Assembly (NCBI GenBank): GCA_035517575.1
Contig: DATIYO010000012.1
Span: 1-61,701 of the forward strand
Length of the DNA: 61,701 nucleotides
Direction of reading: 5' to 3'
DNA from: Methanomicrobiales archaeon
GTDB taxonomy: Archaea; Halobacteriota; Methanomicrobia; Methanomicrobiales; JACTUA01
Position 1 is the first letter of the stretch. Every line of letters begins with the position of its first letter. Shown piece after piece: positions 6,641-54,566 of this stretch. Below the pieces are notes generated by a model. That model made no database searches and was not told the DNA's origin. It worked only from the letters and a program-made list of their open reading frames with translations. A program made the position numbers and the translations under genes.

Positions 6641-6743
6641 CCTCTTAGCATGCGCAGTCCCCCGTGAACAAGATTGTGGTTCCGGCTCCGGTGGCTGACC
6701 GGCTGGATCCGACGCCGCCGGGCACCGCCCGGGTGCGGCATGC

Positions 6744-6749
6744 TAATAA
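6744..6749 (+). promoter_or_regulatory. Putative TATA box (TAATAA)
   Basis: gcTAATAAgg is centred ~27 nt upstream of ATG 6773, which is consistent with a leaderless transcript. Confidence 0.3.
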
Positions 6750-6772
6750 GGCGCGAGGTGGAAAATCCTTTC

Positions 6773-10365: not shown

Positions 10366-10385
10366 AAGAGTCCCCCGTGCGCCGG

Positions 10386-11696
<1,311 letters not shown>

Positions 11697-24060: not shown

Positions 24061-24771
24061 TCATCGGGCCGGCTCCCCTCGCGTCCCCTCCCGTTCCGCG
24101 ATGGCCGTGACAGGTACCCCGTCGAGCCGTTCGAGGATCCACGGGTACACCCGGAGCGACCAGCCTCCCCCGTTCAGGCGTGGATCCGAAAGGTCGACGT
24201 CCTCCATGAGGAGGACCGGCGGCGAGGCGCAGAGGAAGGCACGGTGGCACGACCTCCCCTCCTCGCGGTGCAAGGGGGAGGAGACCGAGACCGTGTCCAC
24301 ACCGAAAAGCCCGAGGGAGGGGGCGTGTTCCCTGAGCACGTCCGGGACCGACGGGTGGATCCAGGGATGCACACCGGCGTAGCCCTCCGGATCACGGCTT
24401 CTCCGCAGGCAGTCCCCCGTGCGGATGATGACCGCCTGAGCCTCGTGGAGGTCCCTGAGGAAGGGTTCGAGCCCGCCTCCCGTGACGCAGCCGTCGCCCT
24501 CGACGGGGATCGGGAGGATGACCGTGGGGGCGAACACGTTCTCGGCCCCGAGGAGGTCGGATATCCCCGCCCCGCCCGGGCAGAAGTGGAGGGGGGCGTC
24601 GAGGTGGGTCCCCGAGTGGGTGTGGAGGCTCACGATCTCCGACGAAGATGAATCTCCTCTCTCGATGGACCGGTACGGCGCCCTCGTCGCGGCCGGCGTG
24701 CCGGGGTACAGGGGAGATCCCGCTTCGAGGGGATGGGAGATCCGGATCAGCACGGTGACCCCTCCAGCCAC
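24061..24771 (-). CDS. Cyclase family protein (kynurenine-formamidase-like metal hydrolase)
   Basis: The HTHSGTHLDAPLHF motif is present. The start is uncertain: GTG 24771 overlaps the HAD gene by 25 nt and GTG 24753 overlaps it by 7 nt. Confidence 0.65.
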   Translation of the reverse strand: MAGGVTVLIRISHPLEAGSPLYPGTPAATRAPYRSIERGDSSSSEIVSLHTHSGTHLDAPLHFCPGGAGISDLLGAENVFAPTVILPIPVEGDGCVTGGGLEPFLRDLHEAQAVIIRTGDCLRRSRDPEGYAGVHPWIHPSVPDVLREHAPSLGLFGVDTVSVSSPLHREEGRSCHRAFLCASPPVLLMEDVDLSDPRLNGGGWSLRVYPWILERLDGVPVTAIAEREGTRGEPAR

Positions 24772-25412
24772 TTCGCGAGACCGGCGAGGTCCCTCACCAC
24801 GGCCTCGACCCCTTCCTCCCCCTCGAACCGCCCGGGGTCATCCGGCGGCTGCCTGCCCACGAACCTGACCCCGCTCGCCCTCGCGGCGTTCAGGTCGTTC
24901 ACCGCGTCGCCGACAAAGAGGGTCTCCCTGCCGCTCGCGCCGGTCTTTCCCCTGATGTCCCCGATGGCGTCGGTCTTCTTCGTGGGCGCCCCGTAGACCC
25001 CCCTGAAATGTGCCTCGAGCCCCCGCCGCCGGATGATGGACCGCAGCTCCTCTTCGGGCGTCGCCGAGACCACGAAGATCGGGAGCCGGCGTGAGAAGGC
25101 CGCGAGGAACTCCTCTGCACCGGGGACGAACGCTGAGGCGATCACGCCGTCCACCACGAGTCCCGCGTACCGGTCCGAGAGGAAAGTGAATTGCTCGTCG
25201 GAGAGGGGCTCCTTCAGGATCTCGCGGTAGATGTACCGGAACTTGTCGAACCGGGAGACGCCGGTGTTCCGCCGGTGGTACTCCACGATCTCGTCGACGT
25301 GTTCCGGCACGAAGGAGAAGAGGGTCCGGAAGGCCGCGGTCTTCACCCCGACCGACTCGAGGACGACGCCGTCGAAGTCGAGGACGAGGACCGAGACCGA
25401 TCTCAACGGCAT
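24747..25412 (-). CDS. HAD-superfamily hydrolase/phosphatase
   Basis: This is track ORF 24747..25496, trimmed to ATG 25412 (MPLRSVSVLVLDFDGVV). Motif I is DFDG, motif II is VVSATP and motif IV is GDAVNDL. Confidence 0.75.
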   Translation of the reverse strand: MPLRSVSVLVLDFDGVVLESVGVKTAAFRTLFSFVPEHVDEIVEYHRRNTGVSRFDKFRYIYREILKEPLSDEQFTFLSDRYAGLVVDGVIASAFVPGAEEFLAAFSRRLPIFVVSATPEEELRSIIRRRGLEAHFRGVYGAPTKKTDAIGDIRGKTGASGRETLFVGDAVNDLNAARASGVRFVGRQPPDDPGRFEGEEGVEAVVRDLAGLAKWLEGSPC

Positions 25413-26203
25413 GGGGCGACCAGCCTGCCCTTCCCGGGATCTCCCGGGTCCGGTTCCTTCCTGACGAGGTGGCAGAGGTAGAACCGGCGGAAGCACCCGC
25501 AGAACATGTCCGGCTCGCGGAAGACCGACCAGAGAGAGATGACGAGCCGGTCGAGCGCCCCCCCGCCGCCGCCGAGCACCGTGGCGACCCGGTCCCGCTC
25601 GATCTCGAAGGGCGTGTGGGTCACGATCTCCCGGAAATCGGGCACGGAGAACTCGAAGATGTGGTGCTGCGCGGCCGGCCGGCCGGGATCGTACCGTTCG
25701 CCGTGGATGGCGGTCCTCCCGACGAGGGGGATGGAGAGGACGAGCGATCGCTTCGTGACCCGGCCGATCTCCCGCAGCACCCGGATCGGGTCAGGGACAT
25801 GCTCCAGGGTCTCGAAGAGGAGCACCACGTCGACGGAGTCGTCGCGGAAGGGGAGAGACCCGATGTCCGCCTGAAGGGTCTCCAGGCCGCGGGCCCGGAG
25901 GGACCTGACCGCGGGGCCGCTCAGGTTCACCCCGATCCCCTTCTTTCCCAGGGACCTGAGGAAGATCCCGTTCGTGTCCCCCAGGTCGACGACCGTGCCG
26001 CTCACCCCTCCGGGGAAGACCTCGCGGATGAACCTGATCCGGTCAAGGGTGAAGCTCCTGGCCACGTTCTGGAGCCCGGGATCGTCCAGGTCCAGGTCCC
26101 CGTAATGTCGGCGCTCGTCCTCGCCGGTGACGAGGGCCCGGGTCTCAGCATCGGCAGCGGCGAGCTTGGCCTCGAGGATCCGGCTCGCATTCCGCTCCCG
26201 CAC
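25403..26203 (-). CDS. Class I SAM-dependent methyltransferase
   Basis: VVDLGDTNG is motif I-like, and VDVVLLFETLEHVPDP is the Methyltransf_11 post-I region. The protein is 266 aa. Confidence 0.6.
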   Translation of the reverse strand: MRERNASRILEAKLAAADAETRALVTGEDERRHYGDLDLDDPGLQNVARSFTLDRIRFIREVFPGGVSGTVVDLGDTNGIFLRSLGKKGIGVNLSGPAVRSLRARGLETLQADIGSLPFRDDSVDVVLLFETLEHVPDPIRVLREIGRVTKRSLVLSIPLVGRTAIHGERYDPGRPAAQHHIFEFSVPDFREIVTHTPFEIERDRVATVLGGGGGALDRLVISLWSVFREPDMFCGCFRRFYLCHLVRKEPDPGDPGKGRLVAPCR

Positions 26204-26318
26204 CCTCGAGAGGAACCGCCGGGCAAACCCTGGCGAGCTTCCGGAAGACGACAGGCCGGGCGGGAGATCCCCTGTCCGTCCCCCTGAAGGTTCCCCGCCC
26301 GGAACGGACGCGGTTATC

Positions 26319-27068
26319 TCAATCTCCCCCGGTGACCCCGTAGACCTGGCCCGTGATGTAGTCCCCGCACTCGGACGCGAGGAAGAGGCAGAGCCGTGCC
26401 ACGTCGAGGGGCGTCCCGGCCCGGCCGAGGGGGATGGACTTCACCCGGCCCTCGAGCGACGTCCGGCCGATCTTCCGGTGGAAGTCGGTGTCGATGACGC
26501 CCGGCTGGATGGCGTTCGCGAGGATCCCGTGCTTCGCCCCGGCCCGGGCGAGGGTCTTTGTCATCGCCTCGACGCCCGCCTTCGCGGCGCCGTAGTGGAG
26601 GGTCTCCTCCGAGCCCCCGTACTTCGCGGCGATGGAGCTCAGGCTGATGATCCTGCCCCCGCCGTGGTCCTTCATGTGCCGGAAGGCGGCCTGGGCGAGG
26701 AAGAAGGGGGCCGCGAGGTCGAGGGCCAGGGTCTCGTCCCACGAGGCCCGGTCCAGCTCCAGGAAGTGGGGATGGCGCAGGACGGCCCCTGCGTTGTTCA
26801 CCAGGACCTCGATCCCGCCCGCCTCGTCGATGAAATGCGGGACGAGGGCCGAGCACGCGTCAGGGTCCGTCAGGTCTGCCTGAAGGAGGATCGCCTCCCC
26901 GCCGTTCTTCCGGATCCTCGCCCGGACCTCTTGTGCGCCCTCAACGCTCGCGTGGTGGTGGATCCCGACGACCGCGCCGTGTTCCCCGAAGAGCTCCGCG
27001 ATGCAGGCCCCGATCCCCGACCCCGCGCCCGAGACGAGCACCCGCTTTCCCCTGATTGCCTCGAACAT
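26319..27068 (-). CDS. Classical short-chain dehydrogenase/reductase (PtmA/FabG-like)
   Basis: The tail of track ORF 26319..27494 starts at ATG 27068. Motifs are KRVLVSGAGSGIG, NNAG and SS...YGAAK. The protein is 249 aa. Confidence 0.8.
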   Translation of the reverse strand: MFEAIRGKRVLVSGAGSGIGACIAELFGEHGAVVGIHHHASVEGAQEVRARIRKNGGEAILLQADLTDPDACSALVPHFIDEAGGIEVLVNNAGAVLRHPHFLELDRASWDETLALDLAAPFFLAQAAFRHMKDHGGGRIISLSSIAAKYGGSEETLHYGAAKAGVEAMTKTLARAGAKHGILANAIQPGVIDTDFHRKIGRTSLEGRVKSIPLGRAGTPLDVARLCLFLASECGDYITGQVYGVTGGD

Positions 27069-27070
27069 GC

Positions 27071-27814
27071 CTATTCCGCCTCCCGGTACCCGTGGCTCCC
27101 GAGCCAGAACCCGGCCTGGGGGATCTGCCACTCGTAGTCGATGTCGAGCCCGCCCCACTGCTTCAGGGGGTAGATCCGGCGGCCCATCCATTTCTGGGGG
27201 AGGAGCCCCTCCTCGAGGTGCTCGAGGTTCGCGGGCCGGACGATGGAGACCCCCATGTCGGCGAACCAGACGTCCCCCTGCGAGTCCCGGTCGCAGTTCA
27301 GGGTGCGGGGGTCGCCGAAGGCCTCGAAGGGGACGAAGGGGTGGAGGAGGCCGTCCTCCCCGATCCGCCTCGCCCGGAGCGGGCTGTACATGTTGTACCG
27401 CGAGACGCTCACCGCAGAGTCGTACTCCGGGTGCGCCCGGAGCACCCCGATCCCCTCGTCGATGAGGTCCGCGGTGATGGTCGGGGCGTTGCACATGAGG
27501 AGGACGAGCAGCTCGACGGAGTCGCCCTTCCCGAGCCCTGCCCGGATCTCCCTGTAGCCGTGGACGAAGACGTCCTCGCCGAGGGAGGCCGGGGTGCAGA
27601 GCCCGGCGGGCCGGTCGATGATCCGGGCGCCGTGGGACCGGCTGATCTCCTTGATCCGGGGGGAGTCGGTGGAGACGTAGATCGCGTCGACCCCGCGGGC
27701 ACCCTTTGCCGCGAGCAGGGGGTACTCCATCAGGGGCCTCCCGAGCACGGGGTAGACGTTCTTCCCCGGGAACCCCACGCTCCCCTCCCTCCCGATGAGG
27801 AGCGCCGCTATCAT
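27071..27814 (-). CDS. Acylneuraminate (CMP-nonulosonate/ulosonate) cytidylyltransferase family protein, NeuA/PtmB-like
   Basis: The tail of track ORF 27071..27985 starts at ATG 27814 (ATGA overlap). The sequence reads MIAALLIGREGSVGFPGKNVYPVLGRPLMEYPL...IYVSTDSPRIKEISRSHGARIIDRP. Confidence 0.7.
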   Translation of the reverse strand: MIAALLIGREGSVGFPGKNVYPVLGRPLMEYPLLAAKGARGVDAIYVSTDSPRIKEISRSHGARIIDRPAGLCTPASLGEDVFVHGYREIRAGLGKGDSVELLVLLMCNAPTITADLIDEGIGVLRAHPEYDSAVSVSRYNMYSPLRARRIGEDGLLHPFVPFEAFGDPRTLNCDRDSQGDVWFADMGVSIVRPANLEHLEEGLLPQKWMGRRIYPLKQWGGLDIDYEWQIPQAGFWLGSHGYREAE

Positions 27815-28788
27815 GCCCCGCCCCGCGCGAGCTTGCTGACCTCGTTCTCCCTGAGCGGGCACCGGTCGCAGGCGGGGATCTCGTGGGCCTTCCCCGTGCG
27901 GTGCAGGCACCGGAAGTCCTCCTCGCGGGCGCTCCGCCAGGCGTCCTCTATCGTCATGTCGAGGACGTTCCCGAAACTCATCCACTCGTAGATGTCATGG
28001 ACGCAGGGGAGGATCTTCCCGTCCCAGGTGATGGTCATCCGCTGCCAGAGCTGGGGGCAGGCCCAGTCCGAGACGATCCCGCGGTGGTCGGGGTTCCCCT
28101 CCTCGTCCTTCATGTCCAGGTACGCGACCTCGTCGGCGCGGGGGGCCCAGAAGGCGGCGTACTCCTTCTCGCGCCCCGCGAGCTCGGGGACGAGCACCGT
28201 CTGGATCCTGACGAGGGGCTTCGCCGACCCGAGCTCCTCCTTCACCCGCTTCAGGGTCTCGATGTTCCCGACGACCTGCTCGAACCGTGCCCCGACCCGG
28301 TAGCTCTCGTACACCGGCTTCTCGAACCCCTCGAAGGAGATGGAGATCCGGTCCAGGCCTGCATCGACGAGGGCCCGGATCACGGGCTCGGTGAGCCGCA
28401 CGGCGTTCGTGTTGAAGTACACGTCCAGGACCCCCGCGTCCTTCGCGTACCTCACCATCCTGGGGAGATCGGGGTGGAGGAGCGGCTCGCCCCGGAAGGT
28501 GAACTTGAGCGAGGGGAGGGCGTTCCTGCCCGCCTCGTCGAGGACCTTCTTCCAGACCTGCTCCTCCATGAACCCCGCCCGGTACCGGTTGTGGGTCGTC
28601 GCGCAGAAGGGGCAGCGGAGGTTGCAGGTGGAGTTCGTCTCGATGTCCAGGTGGAGCGGGAACTCCCCGACGTGGAAGGTCCCGGGCCACTCCTTCCACT
28701 TCCGGCGGTACTCGCGGTAGCGGGCGTCCTCCCGGTCCACCACGCTCTTCCCGCCGATGGTGTGGAAGTTCGCGTCCACCTCGATCAT
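27811..28788 (-). CDS. Radical SAM protein with a SPASM/twitch-like C-terminal domain
   Basis: This is the C-terminal 325 aa of track ORF 27811..29712, starting at ATG 28788. The radical-SAM CX3CX2C motif CNLRCPFC lies at nt 28603-28626. The auxiliary-cluster motif CPQLWQRMTITWDGKILPC (Cx12Gx4C) and a terminal CDRC follow. Confidence 0.85.
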   Translation of the reverse strand: MIEVDANFHTIGGKSVVDREDARYREYRRKWKEWPGTFHVGEFPLHLDIETNSTCNLRCPFCATTHNRYRAGFMEEQVWKKVLDEAGRNALPSLKFTFRGEPLLHPDLPRMVRYAKDAGVLDVYFNTNAVRLTEPVIRALVDAGLDRISISFEGFEKPVYESYRVGARFEQVVGNIETLKRVKEELGSAKPLVRIQTVLVPELAGREKEYAAFWAPRADEVAYLDMKDEEGNPDHRGIVSDWACPQLWQRMTITWDGKILPCVHDIYEWMSFGNVLDMTIEDAWRSAREEDFRCLHRTGKAHEIPACDRCPLRENEVSKLARGGA

Positions 28789-29705
28789 CAGGACTCCCGG
28801 TCCCTCGCGCCCTTCTCCCGGTCGAGCTCCTTCTGCACCTCGCGGAGGCAGTCGAGGATACCCTCGCTGATGTCGACATACGTCGAGAGGTTCACCCGGA
28901 GCGGGATCTCGGTCTCGAAGGCGTACGGGGTGATGACATAGTGCTGCTGGTGCTCGGGCGGGGCGTAGGTCACCTCGATGGGCCGGCCCAGGATCTCCCT
29001 GACCATGTCGAAGAACTCCCCCATCTTCATCCGCTGGTGGCCGGTGATGAGCACCGACCGGTTCGCGAAGGCCGGGTCGAGGGCGATCCGGACCGTCTCC
29101 CTCGCCGCGTCGTTGATGTGGATGTACTCCCTGACCGCCTCGGGAGAGCTCGTGTACGCGAATTTGCCGTTTTCCAGCAGCTCGCGGCAGACCCGGTAGA
29201 TGAAGTTCCAGTGGTTCGGCTCCCTGCCATAGAGGCTCCCGTACTTGAGGATCGTGGTCGGGAGGCCGAACTCGTCGGCGTAGACCCTGCAGAGGGACTC
29301 GCCGGCCTGCTTCGAGACCCGGTAGAAGGAGCCCCGGGTCCCGCCGGTGTACACCGAGCTCGCGAAGAGGAAGCGCTTCACCTTCGCCTTCCTCGCGGCC
29401 TCGAGGCAGGCGGTCGTCCCGACGACGTTCACCTCCATCGTCTTCACGGGGATCTTCCTGGCCGCGTCGATGTCGGCGATGGCCGCGGTGTGGAAGACGA
29501 GGCTGCACCCCTTCATCGCCTTCCCGAGGGCGGCGGCATCGAGGACGTCGCCCTGCACCGGCCTGCAGCTCGCCCCGCCCCGGACCTTCTTCACCGCGGG
29601 CCCCGCGGTCCGGTCGTAGGCGACGGTGTCGATCCCCTGCTTCAGGAGCTCCCGGATGATGTGGTGCCCGAGGAACCCCGACCCGCCGGTGACGAGGGCC
29701 TTCAC
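28788..29705 (-). CDS. NAD-dependent epimerase/dehydratase (extended SDR)
   Basis: This is track ORF 28788..29966, trimmed to GTG 29705 (GTGA overlap with the upstream stop). Motifs are (M)KALVTGGSGFLGHH, ASSVYTGG and YRVSKQAGE. Confidence 0.75.
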   Translation of the reverse strand: MKALVTGGSGFLGHHIIRELLKQGIDTVAYDRTAGPAVKKVRGGASCRPVQGDVLDAAALGKAMKGCSLVFHTAAIADIDAARKIPVKTMEVNVVGTTACLEAARKAKVKRFLFASSVYTGGTRGSFYRVSKQAGESLCRVYADEFGLPTTILKYGSLYGREPNHWNFIYRVCRELLENGKFAYTSSPEAVREYIHINDAARETVRIALDPAFANRSVLITGHQRMKMGEFFDMVREILGRPIEVTYAPPEHQQHYVITPYAFETEIPLRVNLSTYVDISEGILDCLREVQKELDREKGARDRES

Positions 29706-30634
29706 GACGCACCTCCCGAAAACCCCGCGATCAGGTTCTCCACGGCCTCCATCTCCATCTCCCGCCTGGTCTCCCTGGTGTTCGAGGCGACATGGGGGGT
29801 CGCGACGAGCTGGGGAAAGCGCAGGAGCTCCCCCGTGTACGGCTCCGACGGGAAGACGTCGAGGCCGGCCCCCGCCACGGTGCCGTCCTCGAGGGCCCTG
29901 ACAAGGGCCTTCTCGTCGATGAGGGACCCGCGGGCCGTGTTGACGAGGACGACTCCCTTCCTGCACAGGGAGAAGATCCGCCCGTCGAGGATCGGCCGGT
30001 TCCCCGGCTGGGCGGGGGCGTGGAGGGTGAGGATATCGGCCCCTGCCACGAGGTCCTCGAGAGACCCGCGGATCTCCACCCCGGCCGGGTCCGTGCCCTG
30101 CCTGAAGGGGTCGTAGGCGATGACCCTGCAGCCGAGGGCCCGGAGCATCGCCGCGACCCTCCTCCCGATCCGGCCAAGCCCGACGATCCCGACGGTCTTC
30201 CCCGCGAGGATGCTCCCTGGCTGCGCATCCGCCTTCCCCTCCCGCACGAGCTCGTTGCGCTCGGGGATGCGCTTCAGGATGGCGAGGAGGAGGGCGAGGG
30301 TGTGCTCGGCCACGGCCTGGACGGGCGCGTCGGGGGTGGTGAGGACCCGGATCCCCCGCCGTTCGGCCGCCTCCCGGTCGATGGAGTCCGTCCCCGTCCC
30401 GACCCGGGAGATGACCCGGAGGTCCGGGCAGGCGTCGATGACCCGCCGGCTGAAGGGCTCGGTCCCCGCGATGACCCCGTCCGCCCCGCCGAGGGCCCTG
30501 CAGAGGTCCCCCTCACCCAGCCGCTTCCCCGACCGGTTCACGTACCCGATCCTGCAGGCCTCGCGGAGCCTCGCCATCGCCGGCCCGTCGTGGTCAAAGG
30601 AGCGGATCGTGAGAGCTACCGTGCAATCTCTCAT
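29702..30634 (-). CDS. D-isomer-specific 2-hydroxyacid dehydrogenase (phosphoglycerate/glycerate dehydrogenase-like)
   Basis: The NAD-binding motif is GKTVGIVGLGRIGRRVA. Other motifs are LVNTARGSLID, AGLDVF and TPHVAS. Confidence 0.8.
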   Translation of the reverse strand: MRDCTVALTIRSFDHDGPAMARLREACRIGYVNRSGKRLGEGDLCRALGGADGVIAGTEPFSRRVIDACPDLRVISRVGTGTDSIDREAAERRGIRVLTTPDAPVQAVAEHTLALLLAILKRIPERNELVREGKADAQPGSILAGKTVGIVGLGRIGRRVAAMLRALGCRVIAYDPFRQGTDPAGVEIRGSLEDLVAGADILTLHAPAQPGNRPILDGRIFSLCRKGVVLVNTARGSLIDEKALVRALEDGTVAGAGLDVFPSEPYTGELLRFPQLVATPHVASNTRETRREMEMEAVENLIAGFSGGAS

Positions 30635-30715: not shown

Positions 30716-31930
30716 TCACCCCGCCCTGCCCGTCCTCTCGTAGAGATAGAGGAAGATGTCGCTCTGGTAGTCGATGAACCCGTGGTACAGGAGATGGCCG
30801 GCGTCGAGATACCGGAAGAGGAGCCGGAACCGATCCGCCGGCACGGGGTACTCGGAGGCGAGCATCCCGGGCTTCTCCCCGCTCACCTCGGGGGAATGGA
30901 TGTCGTGGTTCATGTGGAAGAAGTACCGCGTGGTCCGGGCGATGTGCCCGACGTAGTTCGTCACCGCCTCCCTGTCCATCTCGCCGAGGCTGTTGATGTT
31001 CGTGAACAGGTCGACGGAGTCATCGCCCGCCTTCCCGATCTCGAAGCTCGGCATGAAGATCAGGTCGTACCTTCCGTGGGCCGCCGGCCCGTAGTCGTCC
31101 TCCCCGTAGAGGAGCGCCTTCTTCTCCGGCCAGTTCGTCATCAGGAAGTACGCGCAGAGGCAGAGGGTCTCGGGGAGGTCGAAGTCCAGGAAGCAGAACC
31201 GGCCGAGGGAGCGGAGGGTGAAGTACGCCAGCTTCCCGTAGCCCGCCCCGAGGTCGGCGAAGACGGGCCGGTCCCTGCCCCCGAGGAGCCCCGCGAGGAT
31301 CGAGCCGTAGATCTCGTTGAAGAAGGACCCGACCCCGACGAAGTGCCCGCCGAGGAAGGCGCCTGCCTGGTTCCCGACCGTGGGGTAGGAGAGGGCCCCG
31401 ACGGGCTTCCTCCGGTTGTAGAACCACTGCCACCGCCTGAGCTGCTGGGAGAAGACGACGCTCTCCAGGTACGCCCTCGTCATCGGCGTGCGCATGTTCT
31501 TCCGCAGGAACCCGGTGTTCTCGATCCCGAGGTCCGCCTCCCATGCGCCGAAGTTCGCGAGGAAGAAGTGGAACTTCCCGGGGTCGTCCGAGCGCAGGCC
31601 CTCGGAGAGGGAGGAGTAGCCGCCGGCGAGTTTCTCTTCCCAGATCCCCGCGGGCTGGTAGATCCGGGGGGCGTCCCGCTGGGCCTTCTTCATCGCCCGG
31701 TAGGAGGCGAAGATCCGCTCGACGACCTCGAGCTCCCGCTTCTCCTGCGACGGCCGCACGTAACCCGGGACATGGAGCCTGACGGGGAGGCCCTCCTCGC
31801 GGGCGGTCCGGTCAGGGAAGAGGAGGTACTTCGTCCCGAGGAGGTAGGGCACGAGCTCCAGGCGCACGGCATAGCCGAGGAGCCCCTGCCGGTGGAGCTG
31901 CATGGCCCGTTTCACGCGTGAATCCGTCAT
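30716..31930 (-). CDS. SAM-dependent methyltransferase-like protein (putative sugar O-methyltransferase type)
   Basis: 404 aa. VFADLGAGYGKLAY is motif I-like and the N-terminal region is long. I could not pin down the family precisely from sequence alone. Confidence 0.45.
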   Translation of the reverse strand: MTDSRVKRAMQLHRQGLLGYAVRLELVPYLLGTKYLLFPDRTAREEGLPVRLHVPGYVRPSQEKRELEVVERIFASYRAMKKAQRDAPRIYQPAGIWEEKLAGGYSSLSEGLRSDDPGKFHFFLANFGAWEADLGIENTGFLRKNMRTPMTRAYLESVVFSQQLRRWQWFYNRRKPVGALSYPTVGNQAGAFLGGHFVGVGSFFNEIYGSILAGLLGGRDRPVFADLGAGYGKLAYFTLRSLGRFCFLDFDLPETLCLCAYFLMTNWPEKKALLYGEDDYGPAAHGRYDLIFMPSFEIGKAGDDSVDLFTNINSLGEMDREAVTNYVGHIARTTRYFFHMNHDIHSPEVSGEKPGMLASEYPVPADRFRLLFRYLDAGHLLYHGFIDYQSDIFLYLYERTGRAG

Positions 31931-31973: not shown

Positions 31974-33431
31974 TCAGCGTTTCCCGTCTCCCTCTCCCCA
32001 CCAGCGGATGTGGAGGGTCCGGCGGGCGTCCCCGCGGAGCCCCGGGTCGGCGGCGAGGAGGATCCCGAAGTACACGCCGGCCCCGACGACCACGAGGAGG
32101 AGGGGCTTCACGAAGGAGTGGATCGGCACGGCCGCCTGGCCGGCGAGGACGACCACGGACATCACCGCCGCCGACCCGAGGAAGCGCATGAGTGCGCGGA
32201 GGTCGAGCCGGACCGGCGTGAGCCTGCGGAGCCTCCCCGCGGCGAGGACCAGGCAGACCACGACCGCGGCGAGGGAGCCCGCCGCCGCCCCCGGGAGGCC
32301 GAGGACCGGGATGAGCGCGAGGGAGAGGACGAGGTTCGTCGCGCTCCCCGCGAGCACCACCGTGAAGCCGTCCCGGGCCGCGTCGAGGGCCATGAGGAAG
32401 GTGTAGAAGAGCTGGGAGATGGACTGCATCGTTCGGGCGAGGAGGAGGATGACGAGCACGCCGAAGCCCGCGGCGAAGCTCGCCGAGTAGAGGTAGTAGA
32501 GGAGGTCGCGGCCGAGGATGACCCCGCCGGCGAGGATGGGGATGGCGAAGAGGAGGGCGTAGGAGCAGGAGCGGGAGAGCGAGAGGGCGATGGCGTCCCT
32601 GTCCCCCGTGGCGCCCCACCGGCTGACCTTTACCCAGAGGGTGTTCGAGAGCGCGGTCGAGACGAAGAGCGCGAAGAAGGAGAAGGTCCAGCAGATGCCG
32701 AAGATCCCGACGTCGGAGGACTCCATGAAGTACCCGATGAGGATGACGTTTGCGTTGTCCATGACCGCGACCCCCGAGGCGGCGAGGAAGGCCCAGACCG
32801 AGTAGTTCACCATGCTCCTGAGCTGCTCGAGCCTGACCCGCACGATTCGGAAGTCGATGTAACGGAGGGCGATCACGATCTCGACGAGGAGCCCCGCGGC
32901 GACCCCGCCCACGAGTCCGAAGACCCGGAAGCCGAGGAGGACCAGCGCGAACTGCACGGCGATCCGGGTGACGTTGTCCAGGATGCTCATGGACGCCGAG
33001 AGGCCGAGCCGGTTCGCCCCCCCGATGGCGGTGGAGAGGCACGAGGAGAGGGTGCCGATCCCGAAGACCACGATGAGGGGCCAGAAGAGGCCGGCGTTGT
33101 TCAGGTCCACGAACCGGTACCGGAAGGCCACCATGAGGAGGCTCACGACCCCGAAGAGCAGCACGAACCTGATGACGAGGGAGAGGGTGAAGAAGGCGTC
33201 GGGCCGGACCCCTTCGCTGATCCGCTTCAGCGCCGCGGCATTGAACCCGAGGTCAGAGAGGAGGGCGAGGAGGTTGTAGGTCGAGAGGAAGAGGAAGTAG
33301 GCCCCGAGGACCTCGGCCCCGAGCCAGTGGGCATAGAACATCGTCGCGAGGACCCCGATGAAGGTCATCCCCGCGGACGAGCCGAGCATCAGGAGGCTGT
33401 GCCGGTGCACCTCGGTCTCCACAGTGCCCAT
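31974..33431 (-). CDS. Wzx-like oligosaccharide/polysaccharide flippase (MOP superfamily)
   Basis: 485 aa with ~12-14 TM helices. The N-terminus is LMLGSSAGMTFIGVLATMFYAHWLG...AALKRISEG. Confidence 0.75.
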   Translation of the reverse strand: MGTVETEVHRHSLLMLGSSAGMTFIGVLATMFYAHWLGAEVLGAYFLFLSTYNLLALLSDLGFNAAALKRISEGVRPDAFFTLSLVIRFVLLFGVVSLLMVAFRYRFVDLNNAGLFWPLIVVFGIGTLSSCLSTAIGGANRLGLSASMSILDNVTRIAVQFALVLLGFRVFGLVGGVAAGLLVEIVIALRYIDFRIVRVRLEQLRSMVNYSVWAFLAASGVAVMDNANVILIGYFMESSDVGIFGICWTFSFFALFVSTALSNTLWVKVSRWGATGDRDAIALSLSRSCSYALLFAIPILAGGVILGRDLLYYLYSASFAAGFGVLVILLLARTMQSISQLFYTFLMALDAARDGFTVVLAGSATNLVLSLALIPVLGLPGAAAGSLAAVVVCLVLAAGRLRRLTPVRLDLRALMRFLGSAAVMSVVVLAGQAAVPIHSFVKPLLLVVVGAGVYFGILLAADPGLRGDARRTLHIRWWGEGDGKR

Positions 33432-33559: not shown

Positions 33560-35449
33560 TCAGCTTCGGCGGGCCCCGTCCTTTCGCACGGCGAAGGCGT
33601 CGTACGTCGCATCGGTGACCGGCGCGAAGAACCCCGCCATGATCCCGCGGAGCCGGTCGCGCTCTTCGGGAGAGAACCGCCTCCCGATGAGGCCGCGGAC
33701 CCCGGAGGCGATCTCGTCGGCGGTCCGCGCCGCCCGGATGTACGGGGTCTGGCCGCGGTATGCCGCGACGGGGTCGATGTCGAGCCTCCGGCCGGAGACG
33801 ATCTTGAGGACCGGCACCCCGACGGCGAGGGCGTCCATGCAGCTCGAGGAGGTCGAGTACACGAGGACGGCCGTCGCGGGAAGGAGGGCGCCGAGCGGAT
33901 CGGTCGTGACCCGGATCCGGCCGAGGACCTCCGGCCCCACCAGCCGCTCCAGCCGTTCGATTGGGAGGAACGGGTGGAGCTTGCAGGCGAGGGTTAAGGA
34001 CGGATCCTTGGCGAGGGCCTCGTGCGCCATCTCGAGGAGCTCGGCCGCCTCGTCGGGATCGATGGGGAGGGCGACGAGGACTGTCCCCTTTTCTCCCCCG
34101 TTGGACCGGGCCGGCCCTGCCCCGACCTTCGCGAGTGAGGCGTACCGCAGGGCGCCCGCCGTGACCAGCCGCTCCTTCGGGTAATTCCAGCCCGCCAGGA
34201 GCTGCGAGGCCACCGGCCCGTTCGTGTTGACGATATCGGGGAGGTACGCGAGGTCGGGGGAGGATGCGGGGAGCTGGTGCATGAGGAAGAACTCCGAGAC
34301 GCTCGTGTGGAGGTAGCCGATGACGGTCGTCGCGGGGTGCCAGGTCCGCAGGGCATGGAGAAAGGCCTTCTCCCAGCTGTAGTTCTCGTGGAGGAGGACG
34401 AGGATATCGGGGGAGACCCCGTGCTCCTTCAGCGCTCTCGCGAGGGACCGGACCACGAGGGGGTAGAAGATCGAGAGGCCGGTCCAGTCCTCCAGGTCCT
34501 GCCGGTACACGCAGCCGCCGAAGGAGATGCCCTGGATCCGGTGCACCTCGGGGGCGGGCCGGTTCAGGATGCTCCGCCACCATGCGGAGAGGATCGCCCC
34601 GAACCCCAGGAAGTATTCCTCGGCGAGGAACGGTCTCCCCGATCGCTTCAGGGCGGCGAGGCAGCCGAGATATGCCAGGGGGGAGAGATGCCTCCCGAGC
34701 GGGAGATGGGGGAGGAGGGTGCACGGGTGCCCCTTTTCGACCAGCCGTTCCTGGAGGTCCGCGTAGTAGAGCTCGCGGTATCCCTCCGCCGAACAGGTGG
34801 ACCCCGACGCCCAGGTGTGGACCAGGATACCCCCGAGATCACGGCGGGGAATGCCGTTGCGCCACAGGAACCAGCGTGCGGCGGCGTGGCGGAGCCCGAG
34901 GGTGAGGGCATGGAAGGTCGCCCGGGGGATGACCCGGTGAGCCGCTATCCCCCAGAGGCGCCACCGCCCGAGGGGAAGGGGATCCGATCCCTCGTTGCGG
35001 GCCCTGATCGCGTGGGCTGGATTCACCCCGAGGGTGGCGGCGAGGTCCCGCGCCACGGCCCCGTCCTGGCAGACGACGAGGAGAGAGCCCGCGGTGCTCT
35101 CCCCGATGACCTTCCCCGCGGCCGCGAGGTAGCACAGGTCCTGGAAGACGCGGGACTGGAACGGGACCCGTTCGTAAAAACCGGAGCAGAGGCGGGAGCC
35201 GCGGTGATCCCCCCCGTACGAGGAGACGTATTCGACGAAGGGGGCCCTGAGTTCCCTCGCCGCGGCATGGAACTCCCCGCTGATGTCCCGCTCCCTGAGC
35301 CGGTCCCGGAAACGGCCGCGGAGCTCCTTCAGCTTCCCGTAGTCATCCCCCAGGAACATCCATTCGCCGTCGGCAACCCCACCGTCGGCCGGGGAACGGG
35401 TGCGATCCGCGACCGCCGCGGCGTAATCGAGGATCTCGAGCCTTGCCAT
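33560..35449 (-). CDS. Large uncharacterised protein with a C-terminal GT-B-like KLHP motif (putative cytidine-nucleotide-sugar transferase)
   Basis: This is track ORF 33560..35515, trimmed to ATG 35449 (MARLEILDY...). The C-terminus reads TVLVALP...ACKLHPFLP (nt 33971-33982)...AVLVYSTSSSCMDALAVGVPVLKI. It is colinear with the C-terminus of 49814..52408. Confidence 0.45.
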   Translation of the reverse strand: MARLEILDYAAAVADRTRSPADGGVADGEWMFLGDDYGKLKELRGRFRDRLRERDISGEFHAAARELRAPFVEYVSSYGGDHRGSRLCSGFYERVPFQSRVFQDLCYLAAAGKVIGESTAGSLLVVCQDGAVARDLAATLGVNPAHAIRARNEGSDPLPLGRWRLWGIAAHRVIPRATFHALTLGLRHAAARWFLWRNGIPRRDLGGILVHTWASGSTCSAEGYRELYYADLQERLVEKGHPCTLLPHLPLGRHLSPLAYLGCLAALKRSGRPFLAEEYFLGFGAILSAWWRSILNRPAPEVHRIQGISFGGCVYRQDLEDWTGLSIFYPLVVRSLARALKEHGVSPDILVLLHENYSWEKAFLHALRTWHPATTVIGYLHTSVSEFFLMHQLPASSPDLAYLPDIVNTNGPVASQLLAGWNYPKERLVTAGALRYASLAKVGAGPARSNGGEKGTVLVALPIDPDEAAELLEMAHEALAKDPSLTLACKLHPFLPIERLERLVGPEVLGRIRVTTDPLGALLPATAVLVYSTSSSCMDALAVGVPVLKIVSGRRLDIDPVAAYRGQTPYIRAARTADEIASGVRGLIGRRFSPEERDRLRGIMAGFFAPVTDATYDAFAVRKDGARRS

Positions 35450-35453
35450 CGGG

Positions 35454-36323
35454 TCAGGCTCCCTTGCCCGGGGTTGCCTCGGCGGCGACGTAGAGGTAGC
35501 GGCCGATCTCGGCATAGTCGCCGGCGAGCTGGATTTCGAGGCTCCTGAGGGCCTCGCGCCCCTCCGGATCGAGGGACGACGGGACGCAGACCGCCGCGAA
35601 CGGGTCGCCAGGGATGCCCGAGAGGATCCCTATGCCCCGGTGCCTGAGAGATCGCAGGCCCAGTCGGGCGAGCATGGCGTCCGTGCTCGCCCCCGTGTGC
35701 CAGTGGAGGAGCATGCCGTCCAGTCTCCCCGAGAGTTCCCGCGCCACCAGGGAGGCCGTGTGCCAGTCTCCCCGCTGAACGGCCGCGAGCAGGTAATAGG
35801 CGCGGGTCCTCAGTGACAGGATCAGGAGGCCGCCCTCCCGTAACCATCCCTTGAGTTCCCTGACGAACCCGTCCGGATCCTCGACCATGTAGAGGACTTC
35901 GGTGCAGAGAATACAGTCGAAGAGCTCATCCGGCAGGGCTGCCTTCAGCGCAGGGAGATCGCCGGTCACCCACCGGATTTCGGCCCCCTCGGCCGCGGCA
36001 TAGGCACGGGCCTTCCCGATGGCATCGCCGGAGATGTCCAGCCCGGTGACGGTGTGCCCGTCCCTGGCGAGGGGGATGGAGAGGCGCCCCTGGCCGCAAC
36101 CGACGTCAAGGACCTTCACCTTCCGGCCGCCGAACCTGGCGCCCAGGTCCTCGCGGATGAAGTGGAGGTAGATGCCGGCGTAGTAGTCCTCGGAGGGCTC
36201 GCTGCGCATGTCGTACCGTGACGCCGTCCTCTTCAGGGAATACCGCTGGTACCGGTTCGGGGCCAGGGCCCGCAGGATCCTCCCGTACGCCCCCTCCATG
36301 AGATCCCGGACGCCTTGTTTCAA
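35454..36323 (-). CDS. Class I SAM-dependent methyltransferase
   Basis: The start is TTG 36323, preceded by GGAGGA 7 nt upstream. Motifs are VKVLDVGCGQGRLSIPLARDGHTVTGLDIS and ILCTEVLYMVEDP. Confidence 0.75.
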   Translation of the reverse strand: MKQGVRDLMEGAYGRILRALAPNRYQRYSLKRTASRYDMRSEPSEDYYAGIYLHFIREDLGARFGGRKVKVLDVGCGQGRLSIPLARDGHTVTGLDISGDAIGKARAYAAAEGAEIRWVTGDLPALKAALPDELFDCILCTEVLYMVEDPDGFVRELKGWLREGGLLILSLRTRAYYLLAAVQRGDWHTASLVARELSGRLDGMLLHWHTGASTDAMLARLGLRSLRHRGIGILSGIPGDPFAAVCVPSSLDPEGREALRSLEIQLAGDYAEIGRYLYVAAEATPGKGA

Positions 36324-36390: not shown

Positions 36391-36510
36391 TAGCCGGGCC
36401 CGGGAAGGGCGGGAGTTCGAAACCCGTGGTCCCGTTGCCGGTCGATCCGGGCCCGATCCGATGGATCCCCGTTGAGACAATTCATATCTCCCGCGGGCCA
36501 ACATCGATAT

Positions 36511-37635
36511 ATGGAACCGATCCCGGTATCCCGCCCCTCTCTCGGGGAGGAAGAACTCGCGGCGGTGCGGAAGGTCTTCCTCTCCGGCTGGCTCGGCCTC
36601 GGGGCGGACGTGCTGGAGTTCGAGAAGGCGCTCGCCGGGTTCCTCGGCGCCCCCCAGGTCGTCTGCACGAACACCGGGACGACCGCCCTCCACCTCGCCC
36701 TGGACGCCCTCGGGATCGGGCCCGGGGACGAGGTGATCCTCCCCTCCCTCACCTTCGTCGCCTCTGCCCAGGCGGTAGCGGCGACGGGGGCGCGCCCGGT
36801 CTTCTGCGACATCGGGACGGAGGACTTAAACATCGACGTGGAGGACGCCAGGTCGAGGGTCACCCCGAGGACGAAGGCCATCCTCCCCGTCCACTACCGG
36901 GGCATCCCCTGCGACATGGACGCCCTCGCCGACCTCGCCGCCGACCGCGGCCTCCACCTGGTCGAGGACGCGGCCCATGCCTTCGGGTCCTCGTACCGGG
37001 GGAAGCGGATCGGGTCCTTCGGGGAGATGGCCTGCTTCAGCTTCGACCCCATCAAGAACATCACCTGCGGGGAAGGGGGCGCCGTGGTCTTCAGGGACGG
37101 AGGGCTCCTCGAGCGCATCCAGCAGAAGCGGATCCTCGGGATCGACAAGGACACCTGGAGCCGGTACCGGAACGAGCGGAGCTGGTTCTACGACGTGGTG
37201 ACCCGGGGGTACCGGTACCACATGAGTAACATCAACGCCGCGATCGGGCTCGTCCAGATCCGGAAGTTCGAGGCGATGAACCGGCGGAAGGTCGAGGTGG
37301 CGCGCCGGTACGACGAGGCCTTCGGGGACCTCGACGGGATCGAGCTCCTGGAGAACCGCGGCTACGACGGGATTGGCCTCTTCGCCTACATGGTGAAGGT
37401 GCGGTCCCGCCGGAACGAGCTGATGGACCACCTCGCGGCGAGGGGCGTGGGGTCGGGCGTCCACTACATCCCGAGCCACCTGTTCTCCTACTTCCACGAG
37501 GAGGGGCTCGTCCTCCCCGCGACCGAGCAGGTCTATAAGGAGATCCTCTCCCTGCCGCTGTTCCCCGACATCACCGACGAGCAGGTCGATCGGGTGATCC
37601 GCGAGGTCGGGCAGGGGCTGAAGGAACCCGGATGA
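36511..37635 (+). CDS. DegT/DnrJ/EryC1/StrS-family PLP sugar aminotransferase (copy 1)
   Basis: This is track ORF 36472..37635, which starts at TTG. ATG 36511 gives MEPIPVSRPSLGEEE. Motifs are TALHLAL, VEDAAHAFGS and FSFDPIKNITCGEGG, which carries the PLP lysine. Confidence 0.85.
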   Translation: MEPIPVSRPSLGEEELAAVRKVFLSGWLGLGADVLEFEKALAGFLGAPQVVCTNTGTTALHLALDALGIGPGDEVILPSLTFVASAQAVAATGARPVFCDIGTEDLNIDVEDARSRVTPRTKAILPVHYRGIPCDMDALADLAADRGLHLVEDAAHAFGSSYRGKRIGSFGEMACFSFDPIKNITCGEGGAVVFRDGGLLERIQQKRILGIDKDTWSRYRNERSWFYDVVTRGYRYHMSNINAAIGLVQIRKFEAMNRRKVEVARRYDEAFGDLDGIELLENRGYDGIGLFAYMVKVRSRRNELMDHLAARGVGSGVHYIPSHLFSYFHEEGLVLPATEQVYKEILSLPLFPDITDEQVDRVIREVGQGLKEPG

Positions 37636-38450: not shown

Positions 38451-38511
38451 CCGTCTTCCCGCTGGCGCCCGTGGGAACTATTTAAGGAGGGCGCGAAAGA
38501 GATCATACTGG

Positions 38512-40037: not shown

Positions 40038-40040
40038 CCC

Positions 40041-54529: not shown

Positions 54530-54566
54530 CCGGTGTCCCCATGAACCGGCCGCGGCGGTGTCCCTG

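Follow-up and report, generated by a model that had tools for sequence, protein, structure and literature searches.

A TIGR04326-like GT-B protein of a Methanomicrobiales archaeon, a candidate transferase of a CMP-activated acidic sugar

Described HP-motif transferases and the locus

Apart from the sialyltransferases, little is known about transferases of nonulosonic acids and related acidic sugars, and we are aware of none that has been defined in archaea. Among the closest described systems are BFO_1060, Tanf_01245 and TFUB4_00887 of Tannerella forsythia, transferases of pseudaminic or legionaminic acid derivatives that were validated by knock-outs in which this derivative was lost from its terminal position (PMC5420450). 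These enzymes resemble the target protein of this study in being GT-B/TagB-like with an HP motif, and in having genes that follow a methyltransferase gene at the border of a CMP-nonulosonic-acid locus (PMC5420450). They are 442-445 aa long, however, against 629 aa for the target, do not have its N-terminal domain of 200 residues, and carry D/E-D/E-G and DXD motifs that it lacks; in the target and its family, E-N stands in place of D/E-D/E-G. The HP histidine protonates the CMP phosphate in sialyltransferases and in WbbB (PMC9587256). The Kdo transferases KpsC (GT107) and WbbB (GT99) and the bacterial sialyltransferases (GT38/52/80), all CMP-sugar transferases of solved structure, share with the target a Rossmann-type C-domain with K/x-H-P past the second strand, but none of them was among the best 50 of its 200 structural matches, and the GT-B fold of KpsC and WbbB is strongly remodelled whereas the model of the target resembles a canonical GT-B to which a further domain has been added. 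SpsB of B. subtilis, a TagB-like protein with HP motifs from a legionaminic acid operon, is dispensable for legionaminic acid transfer (PMC7439481), and an HP motif together with locus context can therefore mislead.

The window, by which we mean the whole stretch of 61,701 nucleotides that was analysed (contig DATIYO010000012.1 of assembly GCA_035517575.1), carries the target gene at 33560..35449 on the minus strand, with the stop codon at 33560-33562. The open reading frame containing it spans 33560..35515 (minus strand), and an internal ATG at 35449 gives the 629-aa product; this start was judged to be right because four homologues begin at the same MAR(I/L)EILDY. An initial annotation, made from the sequence alone, had placed this gene between a methyltransferase and the Wzx flippase, and the ORF and neighbour calls agreed. 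Upstream, after a gap of 4 nt, lies a UbiG-like class-I methyltransferase gene (35454..36323, minus strand), and downstream lies a Wzx-type flippase gene (Polysacc_synt; 31974..33431, minus strand) whose product has 14 hydrophobic segments. Methyltransferase genes are among the commonest genes adjacent to the target family, being found within 300 bp in 8 loci, as compared with 15 for GT2 and 11 for radical-SAM genes. A search for transmembrane segments in the target found none, and anchoring by such a segment was rejected since the protein is without any hydrophobic segment. The target is labelled 'hypothetical protein' and, as the annotation had it, neither of the two KLHP proteins in the window is named as a glycosyltransferase.

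Directly downstream on the minus strand sits a module made up of the conserved partners of the target family. It contains a putative sugar O-methyltransferase (TIGR04371, NanM-like; 30716..31930; 71.3 bits, above the 44-bit cut-off), a D-2-hydroxyacid dehydrogenase resembling PGDH and glyoxylate reductase (29702..30634), and an extended-SDR 'epimerase/dehydratase' (28788..29966, true start probably near 29700), the latter two being conserved partners. These are followed by a radical-SAM/SPASM-like gene (27829..28785), with 86.5% identity over 319 aa by tblastn to locus L007 from another Methanomicrobiales MAG, and by a PF02348 cytidylyltransferase gene (27071..27814; weakly PseF/KdsB-like) whose start was mapped via its 70% identity to a fusion protein in locus L005. 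A FabG-like SDR (26319-27137), a methyltransferase (25403-26203), a HAD hydrolase (24747-25496) and a PF04199 cyclase (24061-24771), all on the minus strand, belong to the conserved module 24061..27137. Two plus-strand ORFs (27992-28717) with a GC3 of 0.98 were considered as an insertion splitting this operon and rejected as the antisense shadow of the radical-SAM gene. The plus strand carries a NeuB operon comprising a PseG-like gene (44928-45986), aminotransferases, NeuB (48703-49770) and, directly after NeuB, a cytidylyltransferase fusion gene (49814..52408). The window thus has one ulosonic-acid synthase against two cytidylyltransferases and two HP-type proteins; the two cytidylyltransferases, whose presence the initial annotation had noted, lie at 27071-27814 and at the fusion N-terminus and are both PF02348 members.

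Fold, conserved residues and family of the target

The AlphaFold2 model of the target (pLDDT 93.1, pTM 0.93) has two Rossmann-like alpha/beta domains with a cleft between them. A Foldseek search of this model against the PDB returned 200 matches at E<=1e-3, and the best 50 of the 200 were all GT-B enzymes, the top ones (E about 1e-9 to 1e-6) being GT1 enzymes and UDP-GlcNAc 2-epimerases. The Rossmann-type GT-B fold that had been named beforehand as a check was therefore the one predicted, and in the model it stands behind an extra N-terminal domain of about 200 residues.

This family-specific N-terminal alpha/beta domain (residues 1-205; 34835..35449, minus strand; sub-model pLDDT 87) closes with a long basic/aromatic helix at residues 161-198. 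Searched alone against the PDB with Foldseek, it gave no fold match (best E 0.09). Conservation of at least 90% was seen for W30, G34, R68, S99, F102 and C106 in an 80-sequence alignment, and for E93 in a 31-sequence N-terminal alignment. The first 350 aa as a whole are conserved across the family in full-length matches, and correspond in the model to the 200-aa accessory domain plus the N-domain of the GT-B fold.

The N-terminal Rossmann-like half, presumed to be the acceptor side, was delimited by the order of secondary-structure elements in the model (residues about 206-445; 34115..34834, minus strand). Just past its strand 349-353 lies E355-N356, in LLHENYSWEK (34382..34387), with E355 present in 80/80 and N356 in 72/80 diverse members; we infer that E355 is a candidate catalytic base or nucleophile. 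G378-Y-L-H381 (34307..34318), for which the family consensus is G-Y-Q-H, aligned with an invariant W-Q-H-G of the LIC12162-type domain discussed below. The C-terminal Rossmann-like half, the presumed nucleotide side, was delimited with hhalign (residues about 446-629; 33563..34114, minus strand). It carries K490-L-H492-P493, which is the KLHP motif that the initial annotation had located at nt 33971-33982, so that a conserved His-Pro is present in the nucleotide-binding domain. H and P were found in 80/80 members and K in 77/80; G411 is invariant in the same 80, like E355, H492 and P493, and [KR]xHP occupied the position in 109 of 112 independent metagenomic members. Matches of the family profile to PDB sequences, at profile positions about 442-549, were to GT1 enzymes and KpsC; KpsC was the only non-GT1 match and has V-K-V-H-P in register with the K-x-H-P of the target, at a non-significant E of 0.07-0.9.

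The best and sole significant family match of the target was NCBIfam TIGR04326 (O_ant_LIC13510; E 2.6e-25), which covered residues 330-582 only and at 88.9 bits lies below the 250-bit cut-off. All 80 sampled relatives also matched this model below its cut-off, with a best E of 6.9e-38. The overall architecture agrees with it, the model having 602 positions, the target 629 aa, and the relatives 580-650 aa with full-length matches. A surface-glycan gene setting was seen in every locus of the family that was inspected, and two relatives carry the JGI label 'surface carbohydrate biosynthesis protein'. The family is already catalogued, as NCBIfam TIGR04326 'surface carbohydrate biosynthesis protein', and by sequence comparison the target appears to be a divergent archaeal member of this catalogued family of putative sugar transferases, which for the gene itself is the more modest result. 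A literature search on TIGR04326 and LIC13510 found nothing. Word-index homology searches gave just 4-5 close relatives, even from the 80-sequence alignment, and an exhaustive HMMER search was required; it recovered 4098 clusters at 50% identity. Other matches among the 80 relatives were to DUF6716 (38/80), TIGR04396 (29/80) and, weakly and in the C-terminal domain, NF046086, the BFO_1060 family (26/80, best E 5.5e-13); the target itself had no match to NF046086 (cut-off 200 bits) at E<=1.

Relationship to the fusion protein

The plus-strand fusion protein consists of a PF02348 cytidylyltransferase (residues 1 to about 240) joined to a LIC12162-type (PF27859/TIGR04331) GT-B-like domain with KLHP. 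The initial annotation had described the target as a stand-alone paralogue of this second domain, paired five sequence blocks between the two C-termini, and proposed a pairwise and HMM comparison. BLASTP between the proteins was not significant (best E 0.38, in the wrong region), and within the window the target-family HMM matched only the target and the LIC12162-type HMM only the fusion protein. Similarity emerged from profile-profile alignment once the profiles were deep enough: a shallow comparison gave E 0.19, but the 80-sequence target profile aligned with a 4-sequence fusion profile at 90.4% probability and E 1.4e-6 over 199 columns, pairing target residues 373-591 with fusion residues about 592-818, and with an 8-sequence LIC12162-type profile at 97.8% and E 7.2e-13 over 205 columns. 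The five paired blocks were in register throughout these alignments, and on this basis the target and the fusion C-terminal domain are remote homologues.

Control profiles limit how closely the two can be related. An 8-sequence GT4 profile aligned to the same C-terminal region of the target at E 4e-9, and a 3-sequence PseG profile at E 5e-7, so much of the colinearity reflects the C-terminal Rossmann domain common to GT-B proteins in general, and the word 'paralogue' makes the two seem closer than they are. The proteins fall into separate families, TIGR04326-like for the target and LIC12162 for the fusion protein, with a mutual likeness at most modestly above that to GT4 or PseG; TIGR04331 was weakly matched by only 3/80 target relatives, and the target does not belong to LIC12162 at the HMM level. 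The families are homologous over about 205 columns, comprising the C-terminal half and the last strand of the N-domain, and share [GT]-[YW]-[QL]-H, and in the fusion protein of this window K-L-H-P as well; the features specifically common to the target and the fusion protein are K-x-H-P and the Q/L-H motif. In contrast, the N-terminal two-thirds could not be aligned, and LIC12162-type proteins have G-P where the target has E355-N356. Both proteins of the window do have a GT-B-type C-domain with K-x-H-P, as was claimed when they were grouped as KLHP proteins, but HP is not invariant across LIC12162-like proteins, Y-P and R-P-H variants being found. A search of the LIC12162 profile against PDB sequences gave no match. 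Members of the two families often share loci, as in this window, the P0002/P0007 contig, locus L003 and Herbaspirillum.

Gene neighbourhoods and the proposed function

Family loci were retrieved from metagenomes with a degenerate DNA pattern (EN..WE[KR]-16 aa-G[YF]QH), for which 120/120 matches were true members, and 41 loci whose flanks reached at least 9 kb were surveyed. The initial annotation had suggested examining the co-occurrence of this family with NeuA and NeuB genes. A strong link was found to PF02348 (KdsB/NeuA-type) cytidylyltransferases, which occurred in 24/41 long loci and in 8/10 Pfam-annotated contexts; the link did not extend to NeuB, found in 6/41 long loci. An HpaI-type aldolase was present in 11/41, and one or other of aldolase and NeuB in 16/41. 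Where aldolase and cytidylyltransferase were both present they adjoined in 7 of 14 loci, and one linked cytidylyltransferase is a bona fide KdsB-type enzyme (NF009905, 323 bits against a 255-bit cut-off). No cytidylyltransferase was seen in the available sequence of 17/41 long loci, nor in the 20-kb context L006. The conserved partners of the family are the 2-hydroxyacid dehydrogenase, SDR, HAD, cyclase, methyltransferase, radical-SAM protein and cytidylyltransferase, often with an HpaI-type aldolase, and not NeuB. We found no characterised HpcH-aldolase/cytidylyltransferase glycan pathway in the literature. This recurrent set of an HpaI-type aldolase, KdsB-like cytidylyltransferase, radical-SAM protein, 2-hydroxyacid dehydrogenase, HAD and cyclase could be the source of a new CMP-activated sugar. 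A large protein family that accompanies genes for CMP-sugar synthetases offers a concrete candidate for filling the gap in known transferases.

We propose, with about an even chance of being right, that the target is a soluble GT-B transferase that uses a CMP-activated acidic sugar and is linked to the minus-strand operon in which it lies, not to the NeuB operon. The use of CMP- or CDP-activated donors by the target or the fusion protein had been suggested from the gene content and is our inference also. As a soluble protein, possibly on the membrane surface, the target would bind in its C-terminal Rossmann domain an acidic sugar activated with a cytidine nucleotide, the likeliest being a derivative of a CMP-linked ulosonic or nonulosonic acid. 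The leaving CMP phosphate would be protonated or stabilised by His492 of K-x-H-P, like the HP histidine in bacterial sialyltransferases, WbbB and KpsC, and Glu355, in a loop of the N-terminal Rossmann domain, would act on the acceptor hydroxyl as the base (or nucleophile). The 200-residue N-terminal domain and its basic/aromatic helix may hold a lipid-linked oligosaccharide at the cytoplasmic face of the membrane, before flipping by Wzx. The donor would more likely be made by the minus-strand methyltransferases, 2-hydroxyacid dehydrogenase, SDRs, radical-SAM protein, PF02348 cytidylyltransferase, HAD and cyclase, with the cytidylyltransferase at 27071-27814 as its candidate activator; it could be a CMP-sugar of its own kind or the nonulosonic acid made by NeuB after tailoring. 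On this model, the fusion protein beside NeuB, with its LIC12162-type domain, would transfer the other donor. It weighs against this reading that the minus-strand module contains neither an aldolase nor a second NeuB.

Since the window has a single ulosonic-acid synthase for its two cytidylyltransferases and two HP-type proteins, the target could instead be a second nonulosonic-acid transferase of the NeuB pathway. It would use the same plus-strand CMP-nonulosonic acid for a second residue or acceptor, and the minus-strand module would merely tailor the sugar, such as by adding an N-acyl group of the O-methylated glyceroyl type. Pseudaminic acids with glyceroyl and di-O-methyl-glyceroyl groups are known (PMC5378307), and the module includes three methyltransferases, a HAD hydrolase and an enzyme resembling glycerate/phosphoglycerate dehydrogenases. 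Some family members do lie inside NeuB loci (L044, L087, L129). Herbaspirillum AU14040 has genes for a 'surface carbohydrate biosynthesis protein' and for a LIC12162 transferase after neuABC (PMC6679464), and the Tannerella transferase gene likewise stands behind a methyltransferase gene where the CMP-legionaminic acid locus ends (PMC5420450). We consider this explanation unlikely: the 6/41 long loci with NeuB stand against 30/41 with the dehydrogenase/SDR/HAD/cyclase module or a cytidylyltransferase, no NeuB was present within 10 kb in six independently looked-up contexts, and the NeuB operon of the window already has its own fused transferase-like domain.

Histidines of the HP type are also found in CDP-glycerol glycerophosphotransferases, and a TagB/TagF-like enzyme could take a phospho-alcohol or phospho-acid, for instance a phospho-amino alcohol or phosphoglycerate, from a donor linked to CDP and form a phosphodiester on the glycan instead of a glycosidic bond. 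The Tannerella enzymes and SpsB have been flagged as 'TagB domain' proteins (PMC5420450, PMC7439481). The second HP-type protein of locus L005 has a weak Glyphos_transf match, the module contains a SerA-like dehydrogenase and a HAD phosphatase, and the closest relative of the window's cytidylyltransferase (L005, 70% identity) is fused to a HisC/CobD-like PLP domain in an FrbH-like architecture, which hints at a non-sugar substrate. PF02348 is the CMP-ulosonate synthetase family, however, and CDP-alditols are made by the TagD (PF01467) and IspD/TarI (PF01128) types, to which the linked cytidylyltransferases do not belong. Pfam Glyphos_transf (PF04464) was not matched by the target at E<=1 or by any of the 80 relatives at E<=0.01, and a partner that is an HpaI-type aldolase or NeuB suggests a keto-acid sugar, making such a phosphotransferase quite improbable.

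An NDP-sugar hydrolase or 2-epimerase with a GT-B fold, like NeuC, LegG or PseG, freeing a sugar for condensation by an aldolase or synthase, is very improbable: although UDP-GlcNAc 2-epimerases and NeuC were among the top Foldseek matches (E 4e-9 to 1e-6), Pfam Epimerase_2 was weakly matched by 5/80 relatives (best 9e-6) and PseG (TIGR03590) by 2/80, and the HpaI-aldolase loci would require such a step, the target itself matched neither model, the likeness is at the fold level only and for PseG is limited to the generic C-domain, the putative transferase families NF046086, TIGR04396 and DUF6716 were matched far more often, the window already has a PseG-like gene, and the invariant H-P is part of K-x-H-P, to our knowledge a transferase hallmark that is not known from epimerase or hydrolase families.

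Transfer of a CMP-activated acidic sugar made by the minus-strand operon remains our preferred reading. A wider proposal, which we offer tentatively and regard as somewhat doubtful, is that the TIGR04326-like proteins (over 4,000 clusters) form an unrecognised family of CMP-acidic-sugar transferases with a new acceptor domain at the N-terminus. NeuB would often play no part in making their donors, which would arise through an HpaI/GarL-type pyruvate aldolase and a KdsB-like synthetase followed by radical-SAM, dehydrogenase and methyltransferase tailoring, and the cell-surface glycan of this methanogen-related archaeon would bear a second, chemically new acidic sugar. The gene order around the target is found elsewhere: an ENA contig shows only its start (methyltransferase, target, Wzx and a 381-aa gene), and in the Methanomicrobiales MAG of locus L007 the synteny is kept from the methyltransferase through the target, Wzx, NanM-like, 2-hydroxyacid dehydrogenase, SDR, radical-SAM, cytidylyltransferase, SDR, methyltransferase and HAD genes to the cyclase.

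The target gene and its family

The target lies in a minus-strand ORF (33560..35515) that includes an ATG at 35449, giving a 629-aa protein; this start was adopted because four homologues open with the same MAR(I/L)EILDY. As the initial annotation had described, it is flanked by a class-I methyltransferase (35454-36323, minus strand), located upstream with a 4-nt gap, and by a Wzx-type flippase (31974-33431, minus strand), located downstream. The window has a G+C content of 68.6%, and at NCBI the product, from a Methanomicrobiales archaeon MAG, is listed as a hypothetical protein. The sole NCBIfam match was TIGR04326 ("surface carbohydrate biosynthesis protein", E 2.6e-25), at 88.9 bits against a cut-off of 250, and the Pfam search gave a sub-threshold match only, to DUF6716 (E 0.075, 12.4 bits).

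An exhaustive HMMER search recovered 4098 cluster representatives at E<=1e-3 (2010 below 1e-10 and 332 below 1e-30), mostly full-length proteins of approximately 600-630 aa. Among 80 aligned relatives, TIGR04326 matched all 80 (best E 6.9e-38), DUF6716 ("putative glycosyltransferase") 38 (2.8e-9), TIGR04396 29 (3.8e-10), NF046086 (BFO_1060 family glycosyltransferase) 26 (5.5e-13), Pfam Epimerase_2 five (9.2e-6), PseG (TIGR03590) two (2.9e-4) and Pfam Glyphos_transf none. The target itself does not reach the thresholds for inclusion in TIGR04326, NF046086 or the LIC12162 family, and is best classed as a divergent archaeal representative of the TIGR04326-like group. This group is not an unknown family but an already catalogued, uncharacterised one, and the target gene is an ordinary member of it.

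Fold, motifs and relationship to the fusion protein

The AlphaFold2 model of the target, made with the 80-sequence alignment, was confident (pLDDT 93.1, pTM 0.93). Foldseek returned 200 PDB matches at E<=1e-3, and the 50 listed were all GT-B enzymes, among them CalG glycosyltransferases, UDP-GlcNAc 2-epimerases, NeuC, GT1 and GT4, in agreement with the GT-B fold expected from the initial annotation. The strand order of the model places the N-terminal Rossmann half at residues ~206-445 and the C-terminal half at ~446-629. In the latter, the HP of the K490-L-H-P493 motif (nt 33971-33982, minus strand) directly follows strand 486-490, a Ser/Thr-rich loop (532-536) comes after strand 528-531, and 62 of the 80 relatives have Glu in place of D539. 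The N-terminal half carries invariant E355 (LLHENYSWEK) and G411, with further conserved motifs G-Y-Q-H and P-L-P-D-x-I-x-T-N-G. An additional alpha/beta domain, which includes a long basic/aromatic helix, occupies residues 1-205; it is conserved family-wide and gave a confident model by itself (pLDDT 87), and Foldseek found no solved structural counterpart for it in the PDB (best E 0.09). A search of the target for transmembrane segments found none.

The target had been described as a stand-alone paralogue of the "KLHP domain" of the fusion protein at 49814-52408 (plus strand), in which a PF02348 cytidylyltransferase is joined to a C-terminal LIC12162-type (PF27859/TIGR04331) GT-B-like domain. 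Pairwise BLASTP gave nothing significant (top match E 0.38, in a different region), the target-family HMM run on the ORFs of the window did not match the fusion, and a shallow profile-profile comparison gave E 0.19. Deep comparisons, however, were positive: using an 80-sequence profile built from relatives in the HMMER search, target residues 373-591 aligned with fusion residues ~592-818 (probability 90.4%, E 1.4e-6), and an 8-sequence LIC12162-type profile matched the target-family profile over 205 columns (97.8%, E 7.2e-13), with all five of the originally proposed block pairs in register. Control profiles, one for an ordinary GT4 enzyme and one for PseG, aligned to the same C-terminal region (E 4e-9 and 5e-7), and single sequences of the fusion domain, PseG and GT4 scored alike (E 0.002-0.01), which indicates that the colinearity is mostly that of the common GT-B nucleotide-binding domain. 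Judged by these alignments, the features shared specifically by the two proteins are K-x-H-P and a [GT]-[YW]-[QL]-H motif.

The HP is invariant only in the target family (80/80 relatives and 109/112 independent members), whereas in LIC12162-like proteins Y-P or R-P-H can replace it and the invariant motif is Q-H-G, placed after the last N-domain strand. The variants L-Y-P, R-P-H and R-P-Y were seen at the HP position of LIC12162-like proteins in loci of other genomes or metagenomes (L003 3394-5151, L016 9589-11712 and L025 5722-7881), and "KLHP domain" is thus a poor name for that family. On sequence comparison the target and fusion are remote homologues out of two families, and "paralogue" in the usual sense was an overstatement.

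Gene neighbourhood

The target stands at the head of, or within, a minus-strand run comprising the methyltransferase, target, Wzx, a NanM-like O-methyltransferase, 2-hydroxyacid dehydrogenase, extended SDR, radical-SAM/SPASM protein, PF02348 cytidylyltransferase (27071-27814), FabG-like SDR, methyltransferase, HAD and PF04199 cyclase. This whole order is kept in another Methanomicrobiales MAG (L007); an ENA contig with a 63%-identical homologue shows the start of the run only (methyltransferase, target, Wzx, 381-aa gene). The radical-SAM/SPASM-like gene (27829-28785, minus strand) is concealed in a longer ORF (27814-29730) and is 86.5% identical to its L007 counterpart, so the window has two such genes, the second at 43170-44261. 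Plus-strand ORFs 27992-28300 and 28304-28717 (GC3 0.98, no Pfam match) were rejected as the antisense shadow of the gene at 27829-28785.

Relatives of only 22-35% identity retain the same gene partners. A degenerate DNA pattern of two family motifs retrieved 120 metagenomic loci, all 120 true members, and partners were counted in the 41 loci whose flank was 9 kb or longer (34 from this survey, six from protein look-ups, and L007). PF02348 cytidylyltransferases were found in 24 of the 41, radical-SAM/SPASM and 2-hydroxyacid dehydrogenase genes in 17 each, HAD in 14, the partner SDR in 13, HpaI/GarL-type aldolase and cyclase in 11 each, NeuB in six and a second HP-type protein in five. These counts tie the family firmly to a CMP-ulosonate-synthetase-type cytidylyltransferase, with a non-NeuB route commoner than NeuB; the NeuB association originally suggested is weaker than that with this different conserved module. 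Aldolase and cytidylyltransferase abut (<=40 bp) in seven of the 14 loci having both, and the one such cytidylyltransferase tested, from L004, is bona fide KdsB-type (323 bits against a 255-bit cut-off). Together the two enzymes may make a CMP-activated keto-acid sugar without NeuB. The aldolase is a class II pyruvate aldolase, and pairs occur close to TIGR04326-like genes at L004 3592-5024, L001 13757-15367, L016, L030, L098, L099 and L117.

The plus strand from 36.5 kb carries amino-sugar genes, a PseG-like hydrolase, aminotransferases, WbqC, NeuB and the fusion. Its block at 36472-40985 (DegT aminotransferase, GT2, long glucose-1-phosphate nucleotidyltransferase and 4,6-dehydratase, to which relatives add an FdtA-type isomerase) accompanies the target family in many loci, including L003, L004, L006, L007 and L128; the DegT aminotransferase is 52-82% identical between loci. 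This block probably supplies a 3-amino-3,6-dideoxyhexose residue for the same glycan. In L128 (5687-11794) a family member has differing partners, namely a SIS sugar isomerase, CTP_transf_3, SDR, DHQ-synthase-like enzyme and 2-hydroxyacid dehydrogenase, after which comes the methyltransferase-DegT-FdtA-GT2 block that is also present in the window. L129 (10001-12250) encodes a 749-aa family member that has gained a GNAT acetyltransferase domain. The locus also holds two NeuB genes, Wzx, an STT3/AglB-type oligosaccharyltransferase and four CTP_transf_3 domains, of which one is fused to a GT2; it fits an N-glycosylation locus, possibly archaeal.

Proposed function and other genes in the window

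Against PDB sequences the family profile gave weak matches to GT1 C-domains (E 0.008-0.05) and KpsC (E 0.07-0.09), the K-x-H-P of KpsC being in register with that of the family. The HP histidine of sialyltransferases and WbbB protonates the CMP phosphate (PMC9587256), and deletion of Tannerella forsythia BFO_1060, Tanf_01245 or TFUB4_00887, which have the sialyltransferase HP motif, causes loss of a terminal pseudaminic/legionaminic acid derivative (PMC5420450). Bacillus subtilis SpsB, a TagB-like protein with HP motifs encoded inside the legionaminic acid operon, is dispensable for legionaminic acid transfer (PMC7439481), which counsels caution.

We favour, with middling confidence, a GT-B transferase for a CMP-activated acidic sugar, whose mode of action would come closest to that of HP-motif nonulosonic-acid and Kdo transferases. 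The GT-B fold would take this donor, His492 would assist CMP departure, Glu355 would act on the acceptor, and the novel N-terminal domain could keep a lipid-linked acceptor at the membrane until Wzx flips it. The donor would most likely be made by the target's own minus-strand module, and the NeuB product would be served by the LIC12162 fusion. Of this reading, the analysis shows the fold, motifs, homology and gene linkage, while donor class, catalytic roles and acceptor are inferred. It seems unlikely that the target instead uses the same NeuB-derived sugar, with the minus-strand module as a tailoring set only. TagB/F-like phosphotransfer from a CDP donor, which we regard as quite unlikely, is suggested by an FrbH-like fusion of a PF02348 cytidylyltransferase to a HisC/CobD-like PLP enzyme in the locus of a relative (L005 4202-6016); the N-domain of this fusion shares 70% identity with the stand-alone cytidylyltransferase at 27071-27814, so that the substrate might be not a sugar but of a phospho-amino-acid type. 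A NeuC/PseG-like hydrolase or epimerase is improbable. The earlier proposal, in which two HP-type proteins lacking a glycosyltransferase annotation carry out two transfer steps that depend on cytidine nucleotides, is partly supported, with its paralogy overstated, the family already catalogued and the NeuB link weaker than the one to the other conserved module. Family size, the new N-terminal domain and the recurrent aldolase/KdsB-like module make the family a reasonable target for a new transferase class, and perhaps also for a new CMP-sugar.

Elsewhere in the window, three ORFs with high third-position G+C (9058-10548, minus strand; 16217-17629 and 58026-58898, plus strand; 496, 470 and 290 aa) gave no Pfam matches or hydrophobic segments; the second overlaps an ATP-grasp-like ORF (17185-18777), making the gene calls there uncertain. 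An ArsR-type HTH plus FHA-domain protein is followed by a Ser/Thr protein kinase at 6674-9050 (plus strand). At 54558-57690 (plus strand) this Methanomicrobiales MAG has a complete non-homologous end-joining operon of bacterial type, made up of genes for a LigD primase-polymerase, for Ku and for a fusion of an ATP-dependent ligase with a LigD 3'-phosphoesterase.
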